This document shows positions 1,119 through 36,455 of a DNA stretch of 36,851 bases, in pieces. The stretch is from assembly GCA_014905635.1 (NCBI GenBank), contig JABVCE010000008.1, positions 1,426,001 through 1,462,851 of the forward strand. Direction: 5' to 3'. Each line of letters begins with the position of its first letter. The stretch's first letter is position 1. The notes below the pieces were generated by a model. That model was given only the letters and a program-made list of their open reading frames with translations. It had not been told where the DNA came from and did no database searches. Source of the DNA: Scenedesmus sp. PABB004. Taxonomy: Eukaryota. The position numbers and the translations under genes are program-made.

Positions 1119-1640
1119 CTACTTCTCGTGCTCGTGCTTGCCCTGGCTCTTGAAGAGCTCGTCGATCAGGTCATGGTCCGTGAGCGACTTGGTGGCGGGC
1201 GTCCGCTTGTAGGCTGCGCGGGGCGACGCAGCGAGGGATGGCGGCGGGGCGGCAGCGCAGAGAGTGAGGGCGGCGCGCAGCTGCCCGCAGCGGCCCATCA
1301 ACCTGCTGACACGCCGCTGTGGCCGTGGCGCGCGGCGAAGGGCAGCGCCGGCGGCTGCCCTGGCCGCGCCAGCCTGGCCCCGCTGGCGCCAGCTCGGGGC
1401 CGCGCGCGCGTGCAGCGCCGCCGCGCTGTGCAGCCCCGCCGGCACCATCCAGACCGCCCCACCGCGCGGCCCCCCGCCGCGCCGCCCCGCCCGACCGCGC
1501 TCCACGGCGCTGCGCGCACCGGACAGGCCCCGGCTGATTACGTGCGACGCCGCCGGCAGCGCCGCGCGGGCGGCCTCCATGACTTGGGGGGACGCCAGGG
1601 CGCTGCCAAAGTACTTGACGATGAGCAGCTTGTCGCTCAT
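1119..1640 (-). CDS. Small orphan protein, 71 aa, 2 exons (1640-1520, 1213-1119)
   Basis: ATG at 1640, donor G|GTGCGC at 1519, acceptor GCGCAG| at 1214, TAG at 1119-1121. Spliced product MSDKLLIVKYFGSALASPQVMEAARAALPAASHVISRGLSAYKRTPATKSLTDHDLIDELFKSQGKHEHEK has coding-like composition. Family not recognised. Confidence 0.6.
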   Translation of the reverse strand: MSDKLLIVKYFGSALASPQVMEAARAALPAASHVISRGLSGARSAVERGRAGRRGGGPRGGAVWMVPAGLHSAAALHARAAPSWRQRGQAGAARAAAGAALRRAPRPQRRVSRLMGRCGQLRAALTLCAAAPPPSLAASPRAAYKRTPATKSLTDHDLIDELFKSQGKHEHEK

Positions 1641-1791
1641 ATTGACTCGTGGGCGTTGCTGGGCCGACGTGGAAGTCGGGCCTCTCGCGTGCTGCGTGGG
1701 CGTTGGGCTTGGTGTCTCGTGTGGTTGGTCAATCGCAGACTGTTGGCGCGGCGGGGGGCGGGCGGCGACCAACGGGGAGCAGGGAGGATGT

Positions 1792-1796
1792 TTACA
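1792..1796 (-). promoter_or_regulatory. TGTAA polyadenylation signal of the dioxygenase-like ORF
   Basis: Chlorophyte poly(A) signal about 70 nt downstream of the TGA at 1865. Confidence 0.55.
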
Positions 1797-1864
1797 CAGA
1801 ACCTGCTGACCTGGCTTCCGGGCCGCGGCCAGGGCGGCGCGCGCGCTGCCACGAGCCTCAGGCC

Positions 1865-2410
1865 TCAGGTCACCTGCAGCATCTCGCCAAAGGCGGCCTC
1901 CAGGCCGGCGAGCTCCTGCTGCGAGAGCTCAGAGAGCGTGGCGGCGGTGGGCCCCTCCGCCTCGGCGACGAGCGCCTTCTCGATGCACGCGCGCAGGTCG
2001 TCGACCAGCTGCCTGACCGCGGGCGACGCGCCGCTGGTCGGGCACGGCACCCAGCAGCCGCGCAGGCGCAGCGACACGGTGTTGGGCAGCGCAAACATCT
2101 GGTGCTTCGTGAGGAAAGCGGCCTTGGCGCGCATGACCACCGTGCAGCCCGGGTGGATGATGAGGTGCTTGAAGAGCTTCGCGCCGCCGCCGTCGACCTC
2201 CTCCCACACCAGAAACATGGGCGCGCCGGGGCGCGCGGCGTCGCTGTCGATGGACACCACCGTGAGCGTGACCAGCACCTGTCCAGCGGGCTGCTGCAGC
2301 CGCTCCAGCTGCTCCAGCAGCTCCAGCAGCTGCGCCAGCAGGTCGGGGCACTGGTCGGTGTGCGCCCAGCTCGTGGCGCACAGCATCTGCGCGATGGCGC
2401 GCTTGATGCC
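1865..2410 (-). CDS. 2OG-Fe(II) dioxygenase (AlkB-like) catalytic domain; 5' end unresolved or truncated
   Basis: HxD (WAHTD, 2362-2354), strand VLVTLTVV, then HPGCTVVMRAKAAFLTKH (distal His 2104-2102) and TVSLRLRG. This order resembles the AlkB pattern HxD...PG-L-VM...H...SLTFR. In-frame ATG at 2386; TGTAA downstream. Confidence 0.5.
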   Translation of the reverse strand, partial: GIKRAIAQMLCATSWAHTDQCPDLLAQLLELLEQLERLQQPAGQVLVTLTVVSIDSDAARPGAPMFLVWEEVDGGGAKLFKHLIIHPGCTVVMRAKAAFLTKHQMFALPNTVSLRLRGCWVPCPTSGASPAVRQLVDDLRACIEKALVAEAEGPTAATLSELSQQELAGLEAAFGEMLQVT

Positions 2411-2416
2411 GGAGGG

Positions 2417-3070
2417 GGCGCGCTGGAGGAGGTCGGCGGCGTCGACGCGCGCGCCGCGCTCGACGCGATGCAGGCGCAGCAGACAGAGCTGCAGCAGGTT
2501 GCTGAGCAGCAGCAGCTGCTGGACGCGCTGCACATGGCGGAGTGGTTCATCTGCTGCTGCGGGCGCGTGTGGCGCTGCCGCGGGGCCGGCGCCAACTACG
2601 GCGGCCACGCCCGCTGCGAGGACTCGCGGCAGCGCCGCGAATTCATGCGCCGGTGGGGCATGAGCCCTGCAGTCGCGGCCGCGCTGGCGGCGGGCGCGCT
2701 GGAGGGCGGCGGCGTCCACGCGCGCGCCGCGCTCGACGCGATGCAGGCGCAGCAGGCGGAGCTGCAGCAGGTCGCTGAGCAGCAGCAGCTCAAGCAGCAG
2801 CTGCTGGCCGCGCTGCACATGGCGGAGCGGTTTGTCCTGTGCTGCGGGCGCGCGTGGGTGCGCTGCGGCGCCGACGCCAACTACGACGACCACGTCGCCA
2901 ACCGCTGCGAGGACTCGCGGCAGCGCCGCGAGTTCATGCGCCGGTGGGGCATGAGCCCCGCGGTCGCGGCCGCGCTGGCGGCGGGCGCGCCCGAGGGCGG
3001 CGGCGTCTACGCGCGCACCGCGCTCGACGCGATGCAGGCGCAGCAGGCGGAGCTGCAGCAGGTCGCCTGA
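2417..3070 (+). repeat. Coding tandem repeat, ~2.3 units (starts ~2417, ~2693, ~2984), encoding a Gln-rich helix plus CC..C..H..C putative zinc-binding module; possible CDS 2468-3070
   Basis: Direct repeats visible in DNA. Several differences between units are synonymous on the + strand (CCT/CCC, GCA/GCG, GAA/GAG, GTT/GTC, TTC/TTT). TGA at 3068-3070. Confidence 0.65.
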
Positions 3071-3347
3071 GTGTCGCCGTCGCCACACAGCTGGCCGCCC
3101 GCGCGGCGCACGCGGGCGGGCGCGCAGGCCGCTGCGCGCGCGGCAGGGGCGAGACCGGGATGCGGCGTGGCTGACAGCTGCGCGCGGGGCCCGGCGGCGC
3201 CGCGGCTGCGCCGGCGGCGGTCAGCGCGCCGCGCGCGCTGACTTGCCTGCCGGTGCGCGGGCCCCGCCCGGCCCGCCCGGTCGCTGCGAGTTGTATAAGA
3301 GGCGCGGGGTCGGCCGAGACGCCTCCTCGGAGCGCAGCGCCGTCGTT

Positions 3348-3352
3348 TTACA
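3348..3352 (-). promoter_or_regulatory. TGTAA polyadenylation signal of the pTAC3-like gene
   Basis: Lies about 45 nt downstream of the TGA at 3396. Confidence 0.65.
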
Positions 3353-3395
3353 GCCCACGCGCGCCGCGGCGCGCGGTCCAGTTTGCGGCTCCGCC

Positions 3396-6300
3396 TCAGC
3401 TGCCGGCGCCGCCGAGGCGCTTGGGCTCGCCGCTGCTGGCGGGCAGCTGCCTGGGGTCCATTCCCATCTCCTCCAGCAGCTCAGCGCTCAGGGCGGCGCG
3501 CTTGGCGCCGGCGGACGGGCCCATCGCCGCGGCCACGGCCGCCAGCTCCACCTCCGCGTCCAGCTTGCCGCCGGGGCGCATCCGGCCGTCCAGCACGTCG
3601 CTGCCGGCCTGCCGCACCAGCTCCAGCGAGCCTGGGGCGGCGGCGATGCGCGCGCGGCAATAAGCGCGGGCGGCGGGCGTGAGCCGGGGCACCGGGGCAC
3701 GGTGCGGCCGCAGCCTGCGCGCGGCGCGCGCGCCCGGGGGGCTCACCGCTGCGCTGCAGCCGCTCCAGGAACATCTGCTGCATCGCCTCCAGCTGCTGGC
3801 GCTGCTCCTCGGGCAGCGGCTTGAAGTCACCCGTCTCGTCGTCGACGTACTGCGCGCCGCGGCGCCGGCACCCGCCGGTCGGGCCGGGCGGCGCGGCGGC
3901 GCGGCGGCGCGGCGGCGCGGCGGCGCCGGCGGGCGCGGGCGCGCAGGCGCGCGCACCTCCTGCATGAGCGCCTCCGCCGCGCGCTCGGCGCCGTCCATCT
4001 GCTCGCCCATCACCTCCTGCAGCGCCTGCGCGCGCGGCGCGCGACGCGGGCGGCGCGCGGGCGGGCGTCGGGCGCGGGCTCGCGGCGCGCGCGCGCGCGC
4101 GCGCTGCCGGCCGCCGGCGCTGCGGCGGCGCGCTGCGGCCAGCCGCCGGCGCGCTGCCGGGCGCACCTGCATCATCACGTCCCAGTCCGCGTCGGCCTCC
4201 TCCTCCGCCTCGGCCGCCCACTCCTTGTACTCGGGCGTGCCCGGCCACACGAGCTTCCCGCTCGCCTCGTCCAGCATCAGCGGCAGCCCGTGCGCCTCCG
4301 CCTGCTCCAGCAGCCACTCCTGCGCCTCGGGCGACAGGCTGTCGTTGGCCGCGGCCTGCGCGCGGCGGCGGGCGGGCGGGCGGGCGGGCGCAGTGCGCGG
4401 CGGGGCGGGCAGTGGGCGGCGCCGGCGGCAGCAGGCGCGCGCTGCGCGCGCGCAGCCCGCCCCGCCTGCGCCCCCCGCGGGCGCCGCCTGCGGCTCACGT
4501 GCGCCAGCTGCAGCAGCGTCATGGTCTGCGGCGGCGGCGGCGGCGCCTCTGCGCCGTCGCCGCCCTCGCCCTCGCCCTCGCCCTCGCCCGCCGCGGCCGC
4601 CGCCGCCCTGGCGGCGGCCGCCGCCGCGGCCGCCGCCTCTGCCACGCCGCCGTCGTCCTCCGGCGTGAGCAGCACCGAGGGCACCCAGTGCATGTCCTGC
4701 AGGAGCGCCTCGGGCATGTCCAGCAGCTCCGACGCGTCGTCGGGGCTCAGGCCTGCCGGCGGCGGCAGCGGGCACGCGCGTGGGCGCCGCGGACGCGCGC
4801 GCGCGTGAAGCGTGCCCCTGCCCCGGGGCCCGTCCCGCGCCGCCCCGCCCCTGCCGCGGCGCCGCACCTGCGCCGCGGACGAGCGTCTCGGCGAGCATCT
4901 CACGGCGCTGGCCCATCGCGGCGATGCCCTCGTACAGCTCAGCCATGGCGGCCATGGCGGGGTCGTCCAGCGCCTCCTCGTATTCCTCCGCCTCCTCCTC
5001 GCTGGCCGCTGCGCCATCGGCCTCGGCCGCCGCGGGCGCGGCGGCGCCGCCGTCCAGCGGCGTCTCGGCCGCGGCCAGCGCCTGCACGTCGGTGACGGGC
5101 GGCTCCGCCAGCTGCTGCTGCTGCTGCTGCTGCTCCTGCTGCTGCTGATGCTCCTGCTGCGCCGCGTCGTCCGCCTGCCCGCCGTCCTGCTGCCGCTGCA
5201 GCTGGAGTTGCAGGTCCTCGTCCGTGGTGTCCACGCCCGCGCGCTCCAGCAGCGCCGCGTTCTCCATGCCCAGCCGCTGCGGAGGGAGGGAGGGGGGGGG
5301 GGGCGTCAGCACGGGGGGACAGCGCCCTGCACCGGCTGTCGCAGCGCAGCAGCGGGGCGCCGCCCGCGCCCACGCGCGCACGCGCGCACCTCGCCGCGGC
5401 GCGGCTGGCCGCGCAGCGCGGCGCGCAGGCGCGCGAGCAGCGCGTCGGCGGGGCGCAGCCCCGCCGCCTCGGCCGCCTCGAGCACCACGTCGGCCGCGCC
5501 GGGCGCCGCGTAGCGCAGGCACATGTCGGCGAGGGCCTCGTACTGCGCGGCCACCTCGTCGCGCGCCAGCCCCGCGCCGGGCTCGAGCAGCGCCGCGAGC
5601 CGCGGCGCGACCGCCGCGGCGGCGGCGGGGCTGCGCTCCGCCTGCGCGCCCGCGGCGAGCGCGAGCACGTCGGCGGGGCTCGCCGCGCCGCCGAGCACCT
5701 CGGCCACGCGCAGCACGTCGAGCGCGACGTCCATGCCCGCCACCAGGTTGGCCTCGTCGGTGTCGAGCTGCGCCGCCTCGAGGAACTGCAGCTGCGCGTA
5801 GCCCTGGGGCGGGGGTCCCAGCGACGTGCGGCACAGCGCGGCGCGCGCGTCGGCGCCCACCGCGCGGAGCAATCGGGGGGAGCGCGCGCTGCGCCGCGCA
5901 CACGGTCCCCCGCGCGCCGCACCTCCTGCAGCGTCTGCGGGTCGTGCGCGCGCGCCTCGAAGCTCTGCATCTTGCGCCACGCCGCCTCGTCGAGCTCGCC
6001 CTCCTTGGCGCCGCGCCGCGACTCGTCCTCGTCTGCGCGCGCCGGCGGCGGTGGCGGACGCGGCGGCGGCGGCGTGGGCGACGGCGCAGGGGGCGGGCCG
6101 CCGCCGGCGCGCGGCGCGCGCGCGCGCGTGCGCCGCGCGCACCGTCCTCGTCGTCGTCGTCGCCGCTGCCCGGCAGCAGCGTGGCAAAGCCCGACGCCAC
6201 GTCCTCGTCGCCCACGTTCATCACAGCCGCGGTGCCCTGCGCCGGCACAGGCCCGGCGCGGCTGTGCGGCCGCGCGGCGCGGGGCGCCGGCGCGGCGGGG

Positions 6301-9300
6301 CCCCCTGCACCTCTGCGCTGCGCTGCCCTGCCCGGCGCCGCGCCGCGCCGCGCGCGCGGCCACGCACCTCGTCGAGCATGCGCGCCTCCATGACCGCCTC
6401 GAGGTTGACGTCTTTGATCGCCTTGTTGCTGGCGACGCGGAACTGGTCGTCTGCGCGGGGCGGCAGCGGGCGGGGCGGGCGCGCGCGTGCGGGCCCGCGG
6501 CCGTGGGCGGCGCGTGGGCGGCGGCGCGCTGCGCGCACGTGCGCGGGCCCTGGGGCAGCCGCGGCGCGGTCGCTCGCGCGGGTGGCGGCCCCGGGCGCCA
6601 GGCGGCGCACCCATGGTGTCGATGCCGCCGAGCGCCGCGCCATCGAGCAGGAATTGGTCTGCTTCCACCAGCTGCCGCGCGACGGGGCGCGTCTCCACGT
6701 CGCCGCGCTCGTCCAGGCTCTGTGCGGCGCGGCGGCCGCGTGGCCGCGCGGTGGGAGGGCGGGCGCGGGCGGGGACGCCGCGGCGGCCGCAGCGGGCGCG
6801 CGGGCACGCGCGGGCAGGCAACGCAACGGTGCCGTCAGGGGTACAAGGGGTTTCGAATCAGCGCGCGGCCGCATAGCGTAGCGGCCGCGATCATACTGGT
6901 GCCAGTACCAGACATCACGCGGCTGGGCGCGCACGCACGAACGCGCGCAGCGAGCAGCACGCAGCACGCTGCACGCTGCACGCAGCAAGCGCAGACTGCT
7001 GCCAGCGCCGCGCCAGCGTGGCGCCGGCACTCACCCAGAGCTCGGCCTCCCAGCCGCGCGCGCCCTTGCTGGCTTTGGCGGCCGCCGCCTTGGTGGTGGC
7101 CTTCTTCTTGCGGCCCCCGGCGGGCGCGCCCTCGGGCAGCGCCACCTGGGCCTTCAGCACGTTGAAAGGCAGCCGCGCGCGCGCAGCCTGCGGGGGCGCG
7201 GGCCGCGCCGGCGCGGCGGCGTCGGCGGCCGGCCGGCCGCGCGGCCGGCGCGGCGGGCGCCAGCGCGGCGCGCCGCAGCCGCCTCCGGGCGGCGCGGCGC
7301 GCACCTTGAGCGCGGCGGTGAGCTCCGGGCGCTTCATGGCGCCGGGGTCGGCCACGCCGCGCGCCTCGGCCTCGGCGCGCAGCTGCTTCAGCGTGGCCTT
7401 GGCCAGCGGGACCACCAGCCCGTCGTCGCCCACCACGCAGCGCCCGGGGCCGATCGCGACGCCGTTGACGTACCTGCGAGCGGCCGCGGCCGCGCGCGGC
7501 GCTCGGCCGCGCGCGCCGGCCTCCGGGCCCCGCCGCTGCCGCCGCGGGGCGCGACCGGCCCCGGGCGGCCGGTGCCGCGGCGCCCCGCGCCTCCCCGCGC
7601 CGGCCCCGGCGCGGCGCGCACTCGATGTCTGCGGCGAGCATCGCCGCCTCGCTCTCGCGCGCCTCGGCGCGCGTGGCAATGCCCTCCATATGCCCCAGCA
7701 GCCAGCTGCTCAGCAGCGTGCGGCCCTCGGCGTCGCGCGCGAGCGCGCCCGGCGGCAGCCTGCGGCGCGCGGCGGTGGCGGTGTGCGTGCGCGCGTGGGT
7801 GGTGGTGGTGGGGGGGGGGGGGCTGTGGGGGGCTGGCAGGCCAGCGCAGCGCCACAGCAACGGCAACGTCAGCGCAACGGTGCCGTCAGGGGTACAAGGG
7901 GTTTCGAATCAACGCGCGGCCGCATAGCGTAGCGGCCGCAATCATACTGGTGCCAGTACCAGACATCACGCGGCGGGGCGCACACACAGGCAAGACAAGG
8001 TCACCGCAGCTCAGCACGACACGCGCAACGCAGGGGCTGCCGTCAGGGGTACAAGGGGTTTCGAATCAACGCGCGGCCGCATAGCGTAGCAGCCGCGATC
8101 ATACTGGTGCCAGTACCAGACATCACGCGGCAGCCCCCGGGACACGCGGCACGCAGCACGAGGCGCCGCGGCGCTGCGCGCGCGCGCTGTGTGCGGGCGC
8201 GCTGTGCGCGCTGTGCTGCGCCCGGCCCGCACCTGCAGCCGTCCTCGCTCATGAAGACCAGCAGCTGCAGCAGGTCCACCGGCATGTCTGCCGCCGACAG
8301 CAGCCGCAGCAGCGCCGCGAGCGCGCCGCCGTCCATCAGGCGGCAGCCCATCGCGCCTGCGCGGCGGCGGCGCGGCGCGCGGCGGCGCGGCGGCGCGGCG
8401 TCGGCGCGGCTGCGCCGCTGCGCGCGCTCCGCGGCGCGGTGCGGCGGCGCGCGGCGTGGGCCCACCGGCCATGGAGCGCATGCTCTTGAGCGCCGCCATC
8501 GCGCTGCGGGGGTCGCCGAGGTGGATGTGGCCCTCCGCCTCGAGCCGGAACGTGTGCTTGTCCGGCCGCACGCCGCTCTGCACCATGCGCGCGCGCGTCA
8601 TCGTGAAGCTGCGGCGTGGCGCGGCGCGGCGCGCGGCGCGGGGCGCGGGGCGCGGGGCGCGGGGCGTGAGGCGCCGCGCCGCCTGCCTGGCGGCTGGGCC
8701 GGACGGCGCAGCGCGCCCGCGCAGCGTGCCCCCCCCCCCCCCGCCTCACTCGTTGACCAGCTCGTCGCTCGCGGCGGCCTGCGCCTGTGCGAGCTGCGCG
8801 ACGAGGCCGGCGAGCAGGGCGTTGAACGTGCCCGCGTCGCGGCCCCAGCCGCGGCTGCCCGCCGCGTCGACGAGGCCCGCCGCGTCGGGCATGTTGCCGG
8901 CGAGCGCCTCGGCGGCAACGACGTAGTTCACGTGCCGCGCCTCCGGCCGGAAGCCGTAGCGCGCCGACAGGCCCTCCAGCACCTTCAGCGCGGCGTCCTG
9001 CGGGGCGGGGAGGGGCAGGCGCGCGGCGGCGGCGGCGGCGGCGCGGCGGGCGTCAGGCACGCGCGTGCCGCGGCGGCGGGGCCGGGCGGGCGCCGACGCG
9101 CGGGCGCACGCCTGCCCGCCTGCCCCCCTGCCTGCCGGCGCGGCGGCACGGCGCACCATTTCGCCGAGGTCGCACAGCGCCTTCACGTACGCCTCCGCCA
9201 CGTCGGCGTCCAGCGCCAGACCGCCCGCGAGGCCCTCGCGCACCGCCGCCGCCGCGTCGGCCGCAAAGCCCTTGGCCGACAGCAGCCGGCACAGCACCGC

Positions 9301-10538
9301 CCACGGCAGCTGCGCGGGCGCGCCCGTGCCGGCCAGCGCGGCATAGAGCGACTTGGCCACGCCCGGCTCGGGCGGGGAGAGCTCCATGTGGGCAAAGATC
9401 AGCGCAGCGTAGCTCTCAGGCAGCAGCTGCACGCCTGCAGGCCGCGGCGGCGCGGCGCGGCGGCGCAGCGGCAGGGGTGGCGGCGCAGCGGACGCAGCGG
9501 GCGACGTCGGCATCGCGCGGCGCGCGGGGCGCCGCGCGGCCGCGCGCGCGCGCGCGGCCGCGGCCGCGCACCCGCGGCCGTGGCGCGCTGCGTGACGGCG
9601 AGGCCGCCCTGGAGGTCGCCGGCCTTGAGGTGCGCGCAGAGCAGCACGTGGTACGCGCGTGGCCCGGGGGGCAGCCCCGCCGCCGCCATCTGGTCGAACG
9701 CCGCCGCCGCACCGTCGACGTTGCCCGCCAGCGCGGCGGCGTGGATGCGCCTGGCGGGCGCGGCGCGGCGCGTGAGCGGCGGGCGAGGGGGCGGCGGCCG
9801 CACGGCGCGCAGGCGCTGCCGCCGCTGCTCCAGCTGCCCCAGCTGCTGCTCCGCCTGCCGCCGCCGTCGCCCCACCTGTGGAAGGGGAAGCGCCGCCGGT
9901 CCTCCTCGCCCGCGGTCGACGCGGCGGCCTCGGCCCACGACCCGGGGCCCTGCGCGGGCGCGGGCGCGGCGCTGCGGCCGCGCTCGTCATCCTCGTCCTC
10001 GTCCAAGCCCTCCGGCTCCTCCACCCCCGCCGCGGCCAGCTCCTCCAGCTCGGCCTTGGTCTTGCGGCCGCGCTTGCGCGCGGCAGCACCGCCGCCGGCC
10101 TCGCCGGCAGCCTCAGCTGCATCAGGCGCCCCAGCCGCCGGCGCCGGGGCCTCCGGCTCCCCGGCCACGGTCTTGGGCTTGCGGCCGCGCTTCTTGGGCG
10201 CCGCGTCCGCGCCGCCGTCCGACGGCTCGACCGCGCCTGCGCCGCGTGCGCGGCAGGGGCGGCGGGCGGGCTCGGCGCCTGCTGCGCGCTCGCGGCCCTG
10301 CGCCGGCCGTCGGCCTGAAGCCGCCGCGGCGCAGCCCGGGCGCCATCGGCAGCGGCCCCCCGCGCCCCGGCAGCCGCGCGCCGGCCGCCGCTGCTGCCGG
10401 CGGCGACGCACCTGTGCTGCGCCGCGCCCTCGCCACCGGGGCCGCTCGCCGGGCCCCGAGAGCTGCAGGCAGCCGGGATCTGCCGCCCGGCAGGCCCACG
10501 CCCCGCTGGGTGCCGCGGAGCAGCGAGGCCGCCTGCAT
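3396..10538 (-). CDS. PTAC3: pTAC3/PAP1-like plastid protein (PPR-like repeats + SAP domain). 21 exons: 10538-10412, 10236-9876, 9750-9572, 9434-9157, 8997-8750, 8608-8466, 8356-8233, 7759-7622, 7473-7305, 7187-7035, 6719-6611, 6450-6368, 6236-6143, 6032-5923, 5803-5390, 5276-4868, 4752-4499, 4355-4167, 4025-3957, 3849-3747, 3631-3396
   Basis: GT-AG junctions throughout and an Arg/Ala-rich transit peptide. DQMAAAGLPPGPRAYHVLL resembles recalled plant pTAC3 DMIAAGLSPGPRSFHGLV, and RTLLSSWL resembles RTLVSSWI. PPR-like motifs (GVRPDKHTF, DAGTFNALL) and a SAP-like motif (ATLKQLRAEAEARGV...KRPELTAAL). Confidence 0.75.
6831..6923 (-). ncRNA. Intronic box C/D snoRNA-like RNA, copy A (intron 7034-6720)
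   Basis: Minus strand reads GCCG-C-GUGAUGU (box C) ... AUGA (D') - 9-bp hairpin - CUGAUU (C') ... CUGA (box D)-CGGC. Terminal stem present; same sense as host pre-mRNA. Confidence 0.8.
7882..7974 (-). ncRNA. Intronic box C/D snoRNA-like RNA, copy B (intron 8232-7760)
   Basis: Near-identical to copy A. One stem C>U change keeps a G-U pair. Confidence 0.8.
8039..8131 (-). ncRNA. Intronic box C/D snoRNA-like RNA, copy C (intron 8232-7760)
   Basis: Near-identical to copies A and B. A different stem C>U change keeps a G-U pair. Confidence 0.8.
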
Positions 10539-11898: not shown

Positions 11899-12249
11899 CC
11901 GGGCGCCGTGCAGACGCGCCGGCGGCACAGGGTTGTGCGTACGGGCGACGCTCTGGGGCGAGCTCTCTCTCCGATGCAGGAACACACCAGGCTCGTGCGC
12001 TCCCCCGCGACCGCGCCCCAGCAGCCGCCGTGCGACGTCCCGCAAGCAGCTTGCGCGCCGCCGCTGCCCGCCACCCGCGCTGCCGCTGCCGCGCCCCGCC
12101 CGCTCGCGCCCGGTCGCTCCCCGGTCCGGCACTCCGCCCGGCGACGCGACCGCGCGCCCGCGCGCCCGGCCGCGGCAGCGGCCGCCACGGCAGCGGCCGC
12201 CGCGGCATCCCGGCGCTGCTGCCGCCCGGCCGCCGGCGCCGCCGGCGCG

Positions 12250-12774
12250 ATGACGACGCTGCGCCGGTTCACGTGCAACGACCTGTTTACGTTCAACAAC
12301 GTCAACCTGGACATCCTGACGGAGACGTACAACCTGCCGTTCTATCTGCAGTACCTCGCGCGCTGGCCCGAGTACTGCGTCCTCGCGGAGGGCCCCGGCG
12401 CGCAGGCGATGGCCTACATCCTGGGCAAGGCCGAGGGCGAGGGCCGCCTCTGGCACGGCCACGTGACCGCCGTCACGGTCGCGCCGGAGTTCCGCCGCCA
12501 GGGCCTCGCCGCGCGGCTGATGGGCCTGCTCGAGGAGATCACGCACAAGGTGCACGACGCGTGGTTCGTCGACCTCTTCGTCCGCGTGTCCAACGCCGTC
12601 GCGATCGCGATGTACCGGGGCTTTGGCTACAGCGTCTACCGCACCGTGCTCAGCTACTACGGCGGCGGCGAGGACGCGTACGACATGCGCAAGGCGATGC
12701 CGCGCGACGCCGCGCGCGAGTCGGTGCGCCCGCTGCCGCGGCCGGTGCGGCCCGAGGAGCTGGAGTTTGACTGA
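12250..12774 (+). CDS. NAA20: N-alpha-acetyltransferase 20 (NatB catalytic subunit), intronless, 174 aa
   Basis: MTTLRRFTCNDLFTFNNVNLD..TETY, WHGHVTAVTVAPEFRRQGLA, FVDLFVRVSN and EDAYDMRKA are characteristic of NAA20/Nat3. Confidence 0.95.
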   Translation: MTTLRRFTCNDLFTFNNVNLDILTETYNLPFYLQYLARWPEYCVLAEGPGAQAMAYILGKAEGEGRLWHGHVTAVTVAPEFRRQGLAARLMGLLEEITHKVHDAWFVDLFVRVSNAVAIAMYRGFGYSVYRTVLSYYGGGEDAYDMRKAMPRDAARESVRPLPRPVRPEELEFD

Positions 12775-35835: not shown

Positions 35836-36455
35836 GCCGGTGGTGAGCAGTGGGCGTGAGGCCAAGCGCGATCTCTATGCGAGCTTGAGCGATCGAGGTC
35901 GAGGCGAGTGAGCAGGAGGCTGCTGGTGAGCGAGGGTGCTTGAGCTGTCTGCTTGAGAGAGCTGAGTGGTGAGGCTGGCGCCCATCGCGCCCTATATGCT
36001 CCGGGGGAGGCCACCGAGCGGTCGCGGTAAGGGCGGGGGCAACAGGCGGGTCACCGCCGGCCCAAGCGGACCAAGGCGGTCAGCGGCGGTCCGCTCGGAC
36101 CTGATGGTCCTTGGAGAGTGCTCAAAGAAGTTCCAGGGACCGCCGTCGCTCCGCCGCAGGCGTGAGACGGGCGCGCATCACGGGCCCGCATCACGGGCGT
36201 GCATCACGGACGGCCGGCGGGCCCAGCGGCGGCGGCCGCCGCGGCGGCAGCGGGCAGCGCTGCCGCTGCGCCCCGCGCGCCGCGCCGCGCGCCGCGCGGT
36301 CGGGCGGGCGGAACCGCGCTGCTGCTGCTCGGCTGGTCAGCCGGCGGCGTTACAGCGGCGACAGAACTCGGGCCCGGCGCGGCGGCTGGGCGGGGGCGGT
36401 GGGCGGGACGCTGCCAGCGGGGCGGCACCACCAGTTGGCTGCAGCTGCTGCGGGT

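Follow-up and report, generated by a model that had tools for sequence, protein, structure and literature searches.

The analysed stretch of Scenedesmus sp. PABB004 DNA (the window, 36,851 nt) holds three copies of a 93-nt unit, all on the minus strand and all inside two introns of one protein-coding gene (Table 1). The best match of this host gene is P0001, an annotated homologue among Scenedesmus sp. protein models. As a tblastn search of P0001 on the window was swamped by low-complexity matches, exon borders were taken from exact peptide look-ups: the joins SEDGCR/LPPGAL and WEAELW/SLDERG fall at window positions 8233/7759 and 7035/6719, respectively. With these joins and a GT..AG pair at both introns, the intronic, host-sense placement of the units given in the preliminary description is borne out.

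The host protein finds its best natural match in the Protein Data Bank in PAP1/pTAC3 (E value 1.9e-17, query residues 150-508 against chain residues 62-417) and also matches PPR10 there (8e-9), so that the name 'pTAC3-like' proposed from the DNA alone is a reasonable one. The Pfam hits of the protein are limited to PPR models below threshold and to Rho_N, which is SAP-like (E value 0.014), and the intron-read-through open reading frames gave a single weak PPR hit and nothing else. Seven homologues of the host protein came from the database, among them proteins of Scenedesmus sp. NREL 46B-D3 and Tetradesmus obliquus (P0004 and P0007), and none of the seven is a named pTAC3. A plastid-related snoRNA host had been called unusual, for which we find no support: the intronic snoRNA hosts of Ostreococcus tauri in Table S3 of PMC7671301 are already varied, including a NUDIX hydrolase, a cation ATPase, an Alfin protein and unnamed genes.

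Table 1 Positions in the window of the host gene, its two introns, the three 93-nt units and their predicted elements
Feature	Position	Strand	Remarks
Host gene, PPR protein with SAP-like motif, PAP1/pTAC3-like	3399-10538	minus	extent approximate, from P0001 match
Host intron with copies C and B	7760-8232	minus	GT at 8232-8231, AG at 7761-7760
Host intron with copy A	6720-7034	minus	GTGAGT 5' site at 7034, AG at 6721-6720
Putative snoRNA copy A	6831-6923	minus	93 nt; in 315-nt intron 6720-7034; 111 nt to either splice site
Putative snoRNA copy B	7882-7974	minus	93 nt; downstream copy in 473-nt intron 7760-8232; 3' splice site 122 nt away
Putative snoRNA copy C	8039-8131	minus	93 nt; upstream copy in intron 7760-8232; 5' splice site 101 nt away
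Copy C plus flanks, external stem	8031-8139	minus	8 extra flank pairs
Box C, GUGAUGU	A 6912-6918; B 7963-7969; C 8120-8126	minus	one mismatch to RUGAUGA
Guide 1, paired part, CUGGCACCAG	A 6896-6905; B 7947-7956; C 8104-8113	minus	upstream of D'
Box D', AUGA	A 6891-6894; B 7942-7945; C 8099-8102	minus	geometry as read from the sequence
9-bp GC hairpin, 8-nt loop	A 6864-6889; B 7915-7940; C 8072-8097	minus	between D' and C'
Box C', YUGAUUC	A 6855-6861; B 7906-7912; C 8063-8069	minus	
Guide 2, paired part, CCCUUGUACCC	A 6839-6849; B 7890-7900; C 8047-8057	minus	upstream of D
Box D, CUGA	A 6835-6838; B 7886-7889; C 8043-8046	minus	

Conservation of the units and their flanks

A repeat search of the window returned a single family with three members, and blastn with a word size of 7 found no full-length copies of the unit in the 36,851 bases other than these. 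Two sub-stretches of the unit have three exact matches each, all on the minus strand, and none of 100 shuffles gave any match, which confirms the triplicate 93-nt unit that had been described. When aligned, the copies differ only at columns 55, 61 and 83; each carries one private substitution, so every pair differs at 2 of 93 bases. Copies C and B are separated by a spacer of 64 nt, and the GC content of the units (0.62-0.69) forms dips against that of the host introns (0.77-0.96) and of the window (0.787).

The 30-nt flanks, in contrast, differ at 30 of 60 positions between copies A and B and at 42 of 60 in both pairs that involve copy C (Fisher p <= 5e-13 for the contrast between unit and flank), and their identity of 30-50% is to be read against the 34% of unrelated intron 30-mers. 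The flanks had been said to diverge within a few bases; this holds for copy C, whose similarity to the other copies stops exactly at the unit ends, but not for copies A and B, which have roughly 10-18 flank bases in common on each side. These common bases indicate that this duplication, at least, took place at the DNA level, and the difference between 98% identity in the unit and 50% in the flanks of the same two copies points to selection or conversion that acted on the unit only.

Box C/D architecture

As a class, box C/D snoRNAs are stable RNAs, about 70-120 nt long, that bind fibrillarin, Nop56, Nop58 and Snu13. Box C close to the 5' end and box D close to the 3' end are joined by a short terminal stem into a k-turn, and a further k-turn or a k-loop is made by the D' and C' boxes in the interior; the guides, antisense stretches of 10-21 nt, immediately precede D or D', and the nucleotide to be modified faces their fifth position (+5). 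Boxes C and D with a terminal stem, internal D' and C' boxes and guides in the +5 register are all found in the sequence of the units, and their length is within the range of 67-257 nt given for Ostreococcus C/D snoRNAs in Table S3 of PMC7671301.

A strict scan of the window, in which box C was allowed at most one mismatch to the consensus (RUGAUGA, as quoted in PMC4344503), box D had to be exact and the terminal stem had to have at least 4 bp, gave four hits, three of which are the units, with ends exactly on the conserved block. Such a motif is expected by chance 0.89 times per random window of like composition, and four hits occurred in 1 of 100 random windows. Every element that the preliminary description listed (box C, box D, the terminal stem, AUGA, YUGAUU and the 9-bp GC hairpin) was found again, and boxes C, D' and C' all depart from consensus; the first base of box C' is a C in copy A and a U in copies B and C.

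The terminal stem, GCCG/CGGC, has 4 bp in all three copies and is extended by flank pairs to 12 bp in copy C. The sequence reads as a terminal C/D k-turn made up of this 4-bp stem, a G-A/A-G tandem, a U-U and then a G-C pair. At C'/D' the G-A/A-G tandem and the U-U are possible as well, with a U-A (C' position 6 and D' position 1) in place of the usual G-C. We infer that the 9-bp hairpin would serve as the closing stem of an internal C'/D' k-turn, with which its geometry is compatible.

Two of the substitutions fall in this hairpin, at nt 35 in copy B and nt 41 in copy C, and both are C to U on the minus strand. In the minus-strand fold all nine pairs are kept, the changed one as G-U, whereas the plus-strand fold loses one pair in copy B and gains an internal mismatch in copy C. 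The pairing that had been put forward as a signal of strand and structure is thus confirmed, but as a statistic the signal is weak, with a chance of about 1 in 4. The folding z-scores of the units (-0.5 to -0.8) are unremarkable, with energies no better than those of shuffles, as is usual for box C/D snoRNAs.

The Rfam scan that had been proposed for the units was run and placed them in no family at gathering score: covariance models gave 0 matches at this threshold on both strands of the whole window. With E values of up to 10 allowed, a single C/D model scored in the window, SNORD88 (16.4 bits, where the gathering score is 46), and one unit searched by itself gave no C/D hit, including none of the snR40 or SNORD32 type. 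The B-box-like letters of the unit also raised the idea of a tRNA or permuted tRNA, which we rejected, as ARAGORN predicted 0 genes in the window and no T-stem could be drawn.

Predicted guides and their rRNA sites

As rRNA reference we used one complete rDNA unit (L037) obtained from a metagenome scan, and searched its 5.5 kb of rRNA for duplexes anchored at +5. For both guides, the best duplex in the whole rRNA starts 1-2 nt from D' or D. Guide 1, which precedes D', makes 10 of 10 Watson-Crick pairs (guide positions 2-11) with the universal 18S helix-18 sequence, its +5 nucleotide facing the second G of CUGGUG at 18S position 563 in L037 numbering, with a duplex energy of -23.7 compared to -18.9 for the next best site. 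Guide 2, which precedes D, makes 11 pairs (nine Watson-Crick and two G-U; guide positions 1-11) with GGGUAUAGGGG in the large subunit (LSU) rRNA at L037 position 1011. Its +5 nucleotide faces the A of that stretch, three bases to the 5' side of yeast Gm908, and its energy of -18.4 is ahead of the next best (-16.9) by a small margin. That second-best site, at about 18S position 355, was discarded, as it requires a bulge and matches no listed site.

In yeast, Gm562 lies in 18S helix 18, with G561 before and U563 after it, and is guided by snR40; the G is described as conserved from lower eukaryotes to human (G611) (PMC4344503). The only GGU of this conserved stretch is the one addressed by guide 1, and the predicted +5 position is the equivalent of yeast Gm562. 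The yeast modification was itself discovered late, and we know of no species other than yeast in which ribose methylation of helix 18 has so far been proven. For Arabidopsis, the list of methylations does not include the helix-18 G (At G564), nor do the targets listed for Ostreococcus in the tables of PMC7671301. On balance, we lean towards the helix-18 G as the real target of predicted guide 1.

Yeast snR40 (human U32A/SNORD32A) resembles the unit in having a D' guide on helix 18 with the same conserved G at +5 (PMC4344503), yet the two lack similarity at the level of sequence or covariance model. The same guide of snR40 also serves Gm1271, whereas the six best guide-1 duplexes of the unit do not include the 18S 1270 region, and its other guide addresses 25S Um898, whereas guide 2 of the unit falls three bases 5' of the Gm908 equivalent. 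Judged from these comparisons, snR40 and the unit probably do the same job at one site and are of independent origin.

The LSU stretch addressed by guide 2 (the UAUAGGGGCGAAAGAC region) is also that of the guides for 25S Gm908, snR60, SNORD80, At3gCDbox91 and Ot-CDsno8. Those guides have the first G after UAUA at +5, whereas guide 2 is shifted, with the A three bases upstream at +5, and Ot-CDsno8 has no sequence similarity to the unit. In the same LSU domain, SNORD38, snR61, At-U38 and Ot-CDsno44 are box C/D guides for an A (25S Am1133). An assignment of guide 2 to this U38/snR61 group was considered and rejected, as the guide of Ot-CDsno44 is complementary to a different stretch, AAGCAGAACUGGCG. 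No methylation is listed for the guide-2 A in yeast, human or Arabidopsis, and neither predicted site of the unit is among the Ostreococcus targets of Table S4 in PMC7671301. A literature search by the names of the candidate sites returned unrelated papers only, and the supplements of PMC5122169 contain no snR40, G562, G564, A912 or A905. The LSU A can be put forward only tentatively as the real target of predicted guide 2.

Competing explanations and the place of the cluster

The explanation that we favour overall, with a probability of roughly 0.78, is a single box C/D snoRNA of a very GC-rich scenedesmacean green alga, with the three units as its isoform genes; as far as their letters can tell, the units probably are a genuine but ordinary box C/D isoform cluster. 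The idea of an unlisted snoRNA family that spread by tandem duplication within an intron and by copying to another one is supported by the architecture, the guides, the conservation confined to the unit and the sense-intronic position.

The alternative that survives best keeps the box C/D snoRNP and takes the rRNA matches as coincidental, the RNA being an orphan, a chaperone or a guide for another RNA such as an snRNA, a tRNA or a pre-rRNA spacer. When the guides are shuffled, a +5-anchored duplex at least as good as the observed one turns up somewhere in the 5.5 kb of rRNA in about 7% of cases (144 of 2,000 for guide 1 and 138 of 2,000 for guide 2). Guide 1 is nearly palindromic and able to self-fold, a property that weakens the argument from coincidence and might keep the guide hidden; the 17-nt spacers are used only in part, and the guide-2 site is unlisted in three well-mapped species. 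Orphans also make up 17 of the 131 Ostreococcus snoRNAs in PMC7671301. We nevertheless consider coincidence unlikely: for both guides, the rRNA as a whole offers no better duplex than the one in the canonical register beside D' or D, the +5 position of guide 1 coincides with a proven yeast methylation, and no match to the printed Ostreococcus snRNAs was seen by eye.

If the units were dispersed short repeats of the SINE or MITE type, or snoRNA copies spread by retroposition, without function at these sites, the end of the similarity to copy C exactly at the unit borders would be accounted for. Against this, only three copies lie in 36.8 kb, in one gene and all sense; a reading of their flanks revealed neither target-site duplications nor a terminal inverted repeat of more than 4 bp, no part is tRNA-like according to ARAGORN, the flank bases common to copies A and B speak for duplication of DNA, and the boxes and both guides are intact in every copy. 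We hold such an origin to be quite improbable. Less probable still is a role in cis, as an intronic structure or as the precursor of a small RNA that affects splicing or expression of the host, to which the perfect 9-bp GC hairpin of all copies and sub-threshold miRNA-model hits nearby (MIR898, E value 0.055, at 6940-6993; mir-1544, E value 0.16) might point. A miRNA precursor would need a much longer hairpin, the miRNA-model hits score well under their gathering thresholds and fall mostly outside the unit, the unit folds no more stably than shuffles do, and all 93 nt are conserved, unpaired guides and boxes included. Very recent neutral duplicates, too young to have diverged, would fit the single private substitution per copy, but the co-duplicated flanks of copies A and B are already down to 50% identity against 98% in the unit, which leaves this reading a negligible chance.

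If the units are snoRNA genes, as we favour, they would be transcribed within the host pre-mRNA and freed from two introns. As two copies share one intron, splicing alone would be insufficient for the release of copies C and B, which would involve cutting in the spacer and exonuclease trimming back to the snoRNP. Each RNA would then assemble Snu13, Nop56, Nop58 and fibrillarin on two k-turns, and fibrillarin would methylate the riboses of the 18S helix-18 G and the 25S A. A fuller reading would join three elements: Gm562-type methylation also in chlorophycean algae, reached convergently through a guide unrelated to snR40; a lineage-specific Am three bases from Gm908; and an snoRNA output that rises and falls with the PAP1/pTAC3-like host, since all three copies would depend on host transcription and their output would follow a plastid-transcription factor. 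Taken jointly, these have a slim prospect of all being true, and the suggested coupling of cytosolic ribosome biogenesis to plastid transcription through the host is unsupported.

Chen and colleagues reportedly described, in Genetics in 2008 (179:21), intronic and polycistronic clusters of box C/D snoRNA isoforms in Chlamydomonas and land plants. Multi-copy isoform clusters are given as the rule in Chlamydomonas and plants in PMC7671301, and these resemble the present one in comprising near-identical isoforms of about 90 nt, in sense orientation, within one intron of a protein-coding host. The cluster would add an unlisted snoRNA gene family, of a routine kind, for a poorly annotated and extremely GC-rich green alga, and would illustrate that small RNA genes in such genomes can be spotted from a GC dip that coincides with an intronic repeat of sharp edges. 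The predicted helix-18 Gm is the single point of wider interest, and no new question is opened otherwise: a green-algal guide that is not homologous to snR40 would, if true, suggest that this site is modified more widely than catalogued. Among the titles returned by our literature search there was no snoRNA study of the Scenedesmus group, and a query combining Chlamydomonas RiboMethSeq with snoRNA led to one general review.

A scan of viral_contigs gave no match to a 27-base stretch of the unit or to an 18S primer. A freshwater metagenome run (0.09 share, compared at 80% likeness) left the units themselves uncovered, an outcome that weighs neither for nor against their expression; it contained mostly low-complexity GC matches from other organisms, together with one exact contig of 235 bases at window positions 6926-7160.

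Anatomy of the repeated unit

The window carries three near-identical 93-nt units, copies A, B and C, which when read on the minus strand look like a genuine and ordinary cluster of box C/D snoRNA isoforms, a kind already known. The preliminary description was correct in spotting a snoRNA-like trio here, as boxes, stems, edges of the conserved block and guide registers agree, and its placement of the unit was borne out by repeat alignment and by two sub-stretches with three exact matches each, always on the minus strand (0 of 100 shuffles match).

Positions of the three copies in the window and of the elements within the unit RNA
Feature	Position	Strand	Description
Copy A	6831-6923	-	93-nt repeat unit
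Copy B	7882-7974	-	93-nt repeat unit
Copy C	8039-8131	-	93-nt repeat unit
Terminal stem	nt 1-4 and 90-93 (RNA)	-	GCCG/CGGC
Box C	nt 6-12 (RNA)	-	GUGAUGU
Spacer 1	nt 13-29 (RNA)	-	guide 1
Box D'	nt 30-33 (RNA)	-	AUGA
Hairpin	nt 35-60 (RNA)	-	9-bp GC hairpin, 8-nt loop
Box C'	nt 63-69 (RNA)	-	YUGAUUC
Spacer 2	nt 70-85 (RNA)	-	guide 2
Box D	nt 86-89 (RNA)	-	CUGA

Judging from their sequence, boxes C and D can form a standard k-turn, with a three-base bulge, a G-A/A-G tandem, U-U and G-C. The hairpin sits exactly at the closing-stem position required for a second true k-turn from D' and C', and the C'/D' motif has U-A (C' position 6 with D' position 1) in place of the consensus G-C, probably a compensated deviation. 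With either hairpin substitution, all nine pairs survive in the minus-strand fold, the altered one as G-U, whereas plus-strand pairing is disrupted; the folds thus agree with what had been claimed of them, yet for two events such strand specificity has a 1-in-4 probability by chance. In copy C alone the flanks pair with each other, extending the terminal stem to 12 bp by eight more pairs, one of them G-U (8031-8139, minus strand), and this may help the first unit of a two-unit intron to be processed; copies A and B have the 4-bp stem. A strict scan for box C, box D and a 4-bp stem gave four matches in the window, including all three copies, whereas composition-matched random windows averaged 0.89; taken by itself the motif is weak evidence, and it gains its weight from ending where the conserved block ends. 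The fourth match, very GC-rich (36074-36187, minus strand), stands at about chance level.

Predicted rRNA targets and known families

The rRNA reference was eukaryotic rDNA collected from metagenome contigs via a standard 18S primer, and is not that of Scenedesmus sp. PABB004 itself; one complete unit from this set, L037, was used and holds 18S at 1300-3101, 5.8S at 3344-3496 and LSU at 3667-7228. The ten bases of guide 1 adjoining D' pair perfectly with CUGGUGCCAG in 18S helix 18, the fifth position facing the second G (563 in L037), and this duplex has the lowest energy anywhere in the rRNA (-23.7 versus -18.9 kcal/mol). According to the excerpted text of PMC4344503, yeast helix 18 is ribose-methylated at G562, between G561 and U563, with snR40 as the guide; conservation of the site as far as human G611 is stated there. 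Given the numbering and the unique GGU, the predicted target of guide 1 is the same nucleotide as yeast G562. Its presence in all fetched rDNA loci is by construction, as the primer includes it, and is not independent evidence of conservation. This G (Arabidopsis G564) is absent from the Arabidopsis methylation table and from the excerpted Ostreococcus target list (PMC7671301).

For guide 2, the eleven bases adjoining box D pair with LSU GGGUAUAGGGG (nine Watson-Crick, two G-U), the fifth position facing its A. This is the best rRNA site by energy, by a small margin (-18.4 versus -16.9), and the exact stretch occurs in 11 of the 19 LSU copies among the fetched loci. The printed guide of Ot-CDsno8, an snR60 homologue, puts yeast Gm908 (Arabidopsis G915) on the first G after UAUA, so that the guide 2 target would lie three bases upstream of the Gm908 equivalent; the yeast, human and Arabidopsis listings show no methylation at this A. 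The U38/snR61 site, an initial candidate for guide 2, was ruled out by the printed Ot-CDsno44 guide.

Shuffled guides found an equally good duplex, anchored at the +5 target register, somewhere in the 5.5-kb rRNA in 144 of 2000 trials (guide 1) and 138 of 2000 (guide 2), and a single match of either guide is only suggestive. A real box C/D RNA that is an orphan, above all as to guide 2, is accordingly possible; the case for targets is made by guide 1 falling on a proven yeast site and by the canonical register of both duplexes.

The Rfam search suggested in the preliminary description was run on the window and no model reached its gathering score; at E up to 10 the sole C/D match was SNORD88 (16.4 bits, threshold 46), and the isolated unit gave no C/D match over the same range. 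Whereas the unit RNA is predicted to do the job of the snR40 D' guide at one site, the helix-18 G, it has neither the sequence nor the other targets of snR40 and is thus not a member of that family. Of the findings, just this predicted guide for helix-18 Gm, non-homologous to snR40, is of mild interest. Chlamydomonas and plants are likewise described, in the available part of PMC7671301, as carrying several isoforms within introns of protein-coding hosts; by listed titles, the literature searched held no snoRNA study of Scenedesmaceae.

Host introns and constraint on the unit

The units lie within a minus-strand gene, one exon of which matches, at 99% identity (E 3e-47), a 1329-aa protein model of Scenedesmus sp. 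PABB004 named as a pentatricopeptide-repeat (PPR) protein, in which SEDGCR is joined to LPPGAL and WEAELW to SLDERG. These junctions fall at 8233/7759 and 7035/6719, with GT and AG at the intron ends, which places copies C and B inside a 473-nt intron, 101 nt from its 5' splice site and 122 nt from its 3' splice site, respectively, with a 64-nt spacer between them. Copy A sits centrally in a 315-nt intron that follows two exons further downstream, and all three are in host sense orientation, so the units are intronic and sense as originally described. Among solved structures, the natural protein that the host matches best is PAP1/pTAC3, from the plastid RNA polymerase (collinear across ~360 residues, E 1.9e-17), and Pfam gave sub-threshold PPR matches and a SAP-like match, no more; the earlier label of pTAC3-like is a fair one, short of proof. 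The suggestion that a host of this plastid-related kind is out of the ordinary gains no support, as intronic snoRNA hosts in Ostreococcus are varied and include a NUDIX hydrolase, a cation ATPase and an Alfin protein (PMC7671301, in part).

Both introns hold other features. Past copy B and before the 3' splice site, the plus strand carries a long G-run (7790-7834; a C-run on the gene strand), and read mapping skipped 7768-7834 as repeat. In the intron of copy A, an imperfect hairpin built from CAGCGTG-like repeats lies directly upstream of the unit (6940-6993, minus strand) and resembles the MIR898 model below threshold (23.4 bits, gathering score 75, E 0.055).

With blastn at word size 7, the 36,851 bases hold no extra full or partial copy of the unit, just chance matches to its GC-rich hairpin arm. 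Each copy has one private substitution, which makes 2 differences per 93 positions in any pair, whereas the 30-nt flanks show 30 differences per 60 positions for A against B and 42 per 60 for either against C (unrelated intron 30-mers of the region are 34% identical). The reported flank divergence thus stands with respect to copy C, but A and B have kept 10-18 flank bases in common, which points to duplication at the DNA level and decay since. A dispersed repeat is disfavoured by these shared bases, by the confinement of three sense copies to one gene, by the lack of flanking direct repeats and by the intact boxes and guides. A regulatory hairpin or miRNA precursor would leave the conservation of the unpaired parts unexplained, and its folding does not beat that of shuffled sequences. 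Recent neutral duplication is contradicted by the already decayed flanks. On these comparisons, some constraint is keeping precisely these 93 bases constant.

A GTTGCG-like word recurs in all three minus-strand 3' flanks, within about 15 nt of the unit (plus-strand 6811-6830, 7862-7881 and 8019-8038), and could be residual homology or a processing signal. The units are local GC minima (0.62-0.69, against 0.77-0.96 in the rest of the introns) in a window of 78.7% G+C. Window-wide, introns reach 0.9 and above while conserved exons and the snoRNA units form dips, a contrast that may be of use in screening this genome for small RNA genes. Among the strongest dips (0.51) is an intron-less ORF at about 12170-12770 on the plus strand, which resembles an N-terminal acetyltransferase catalytic subunit (NAA20-like).
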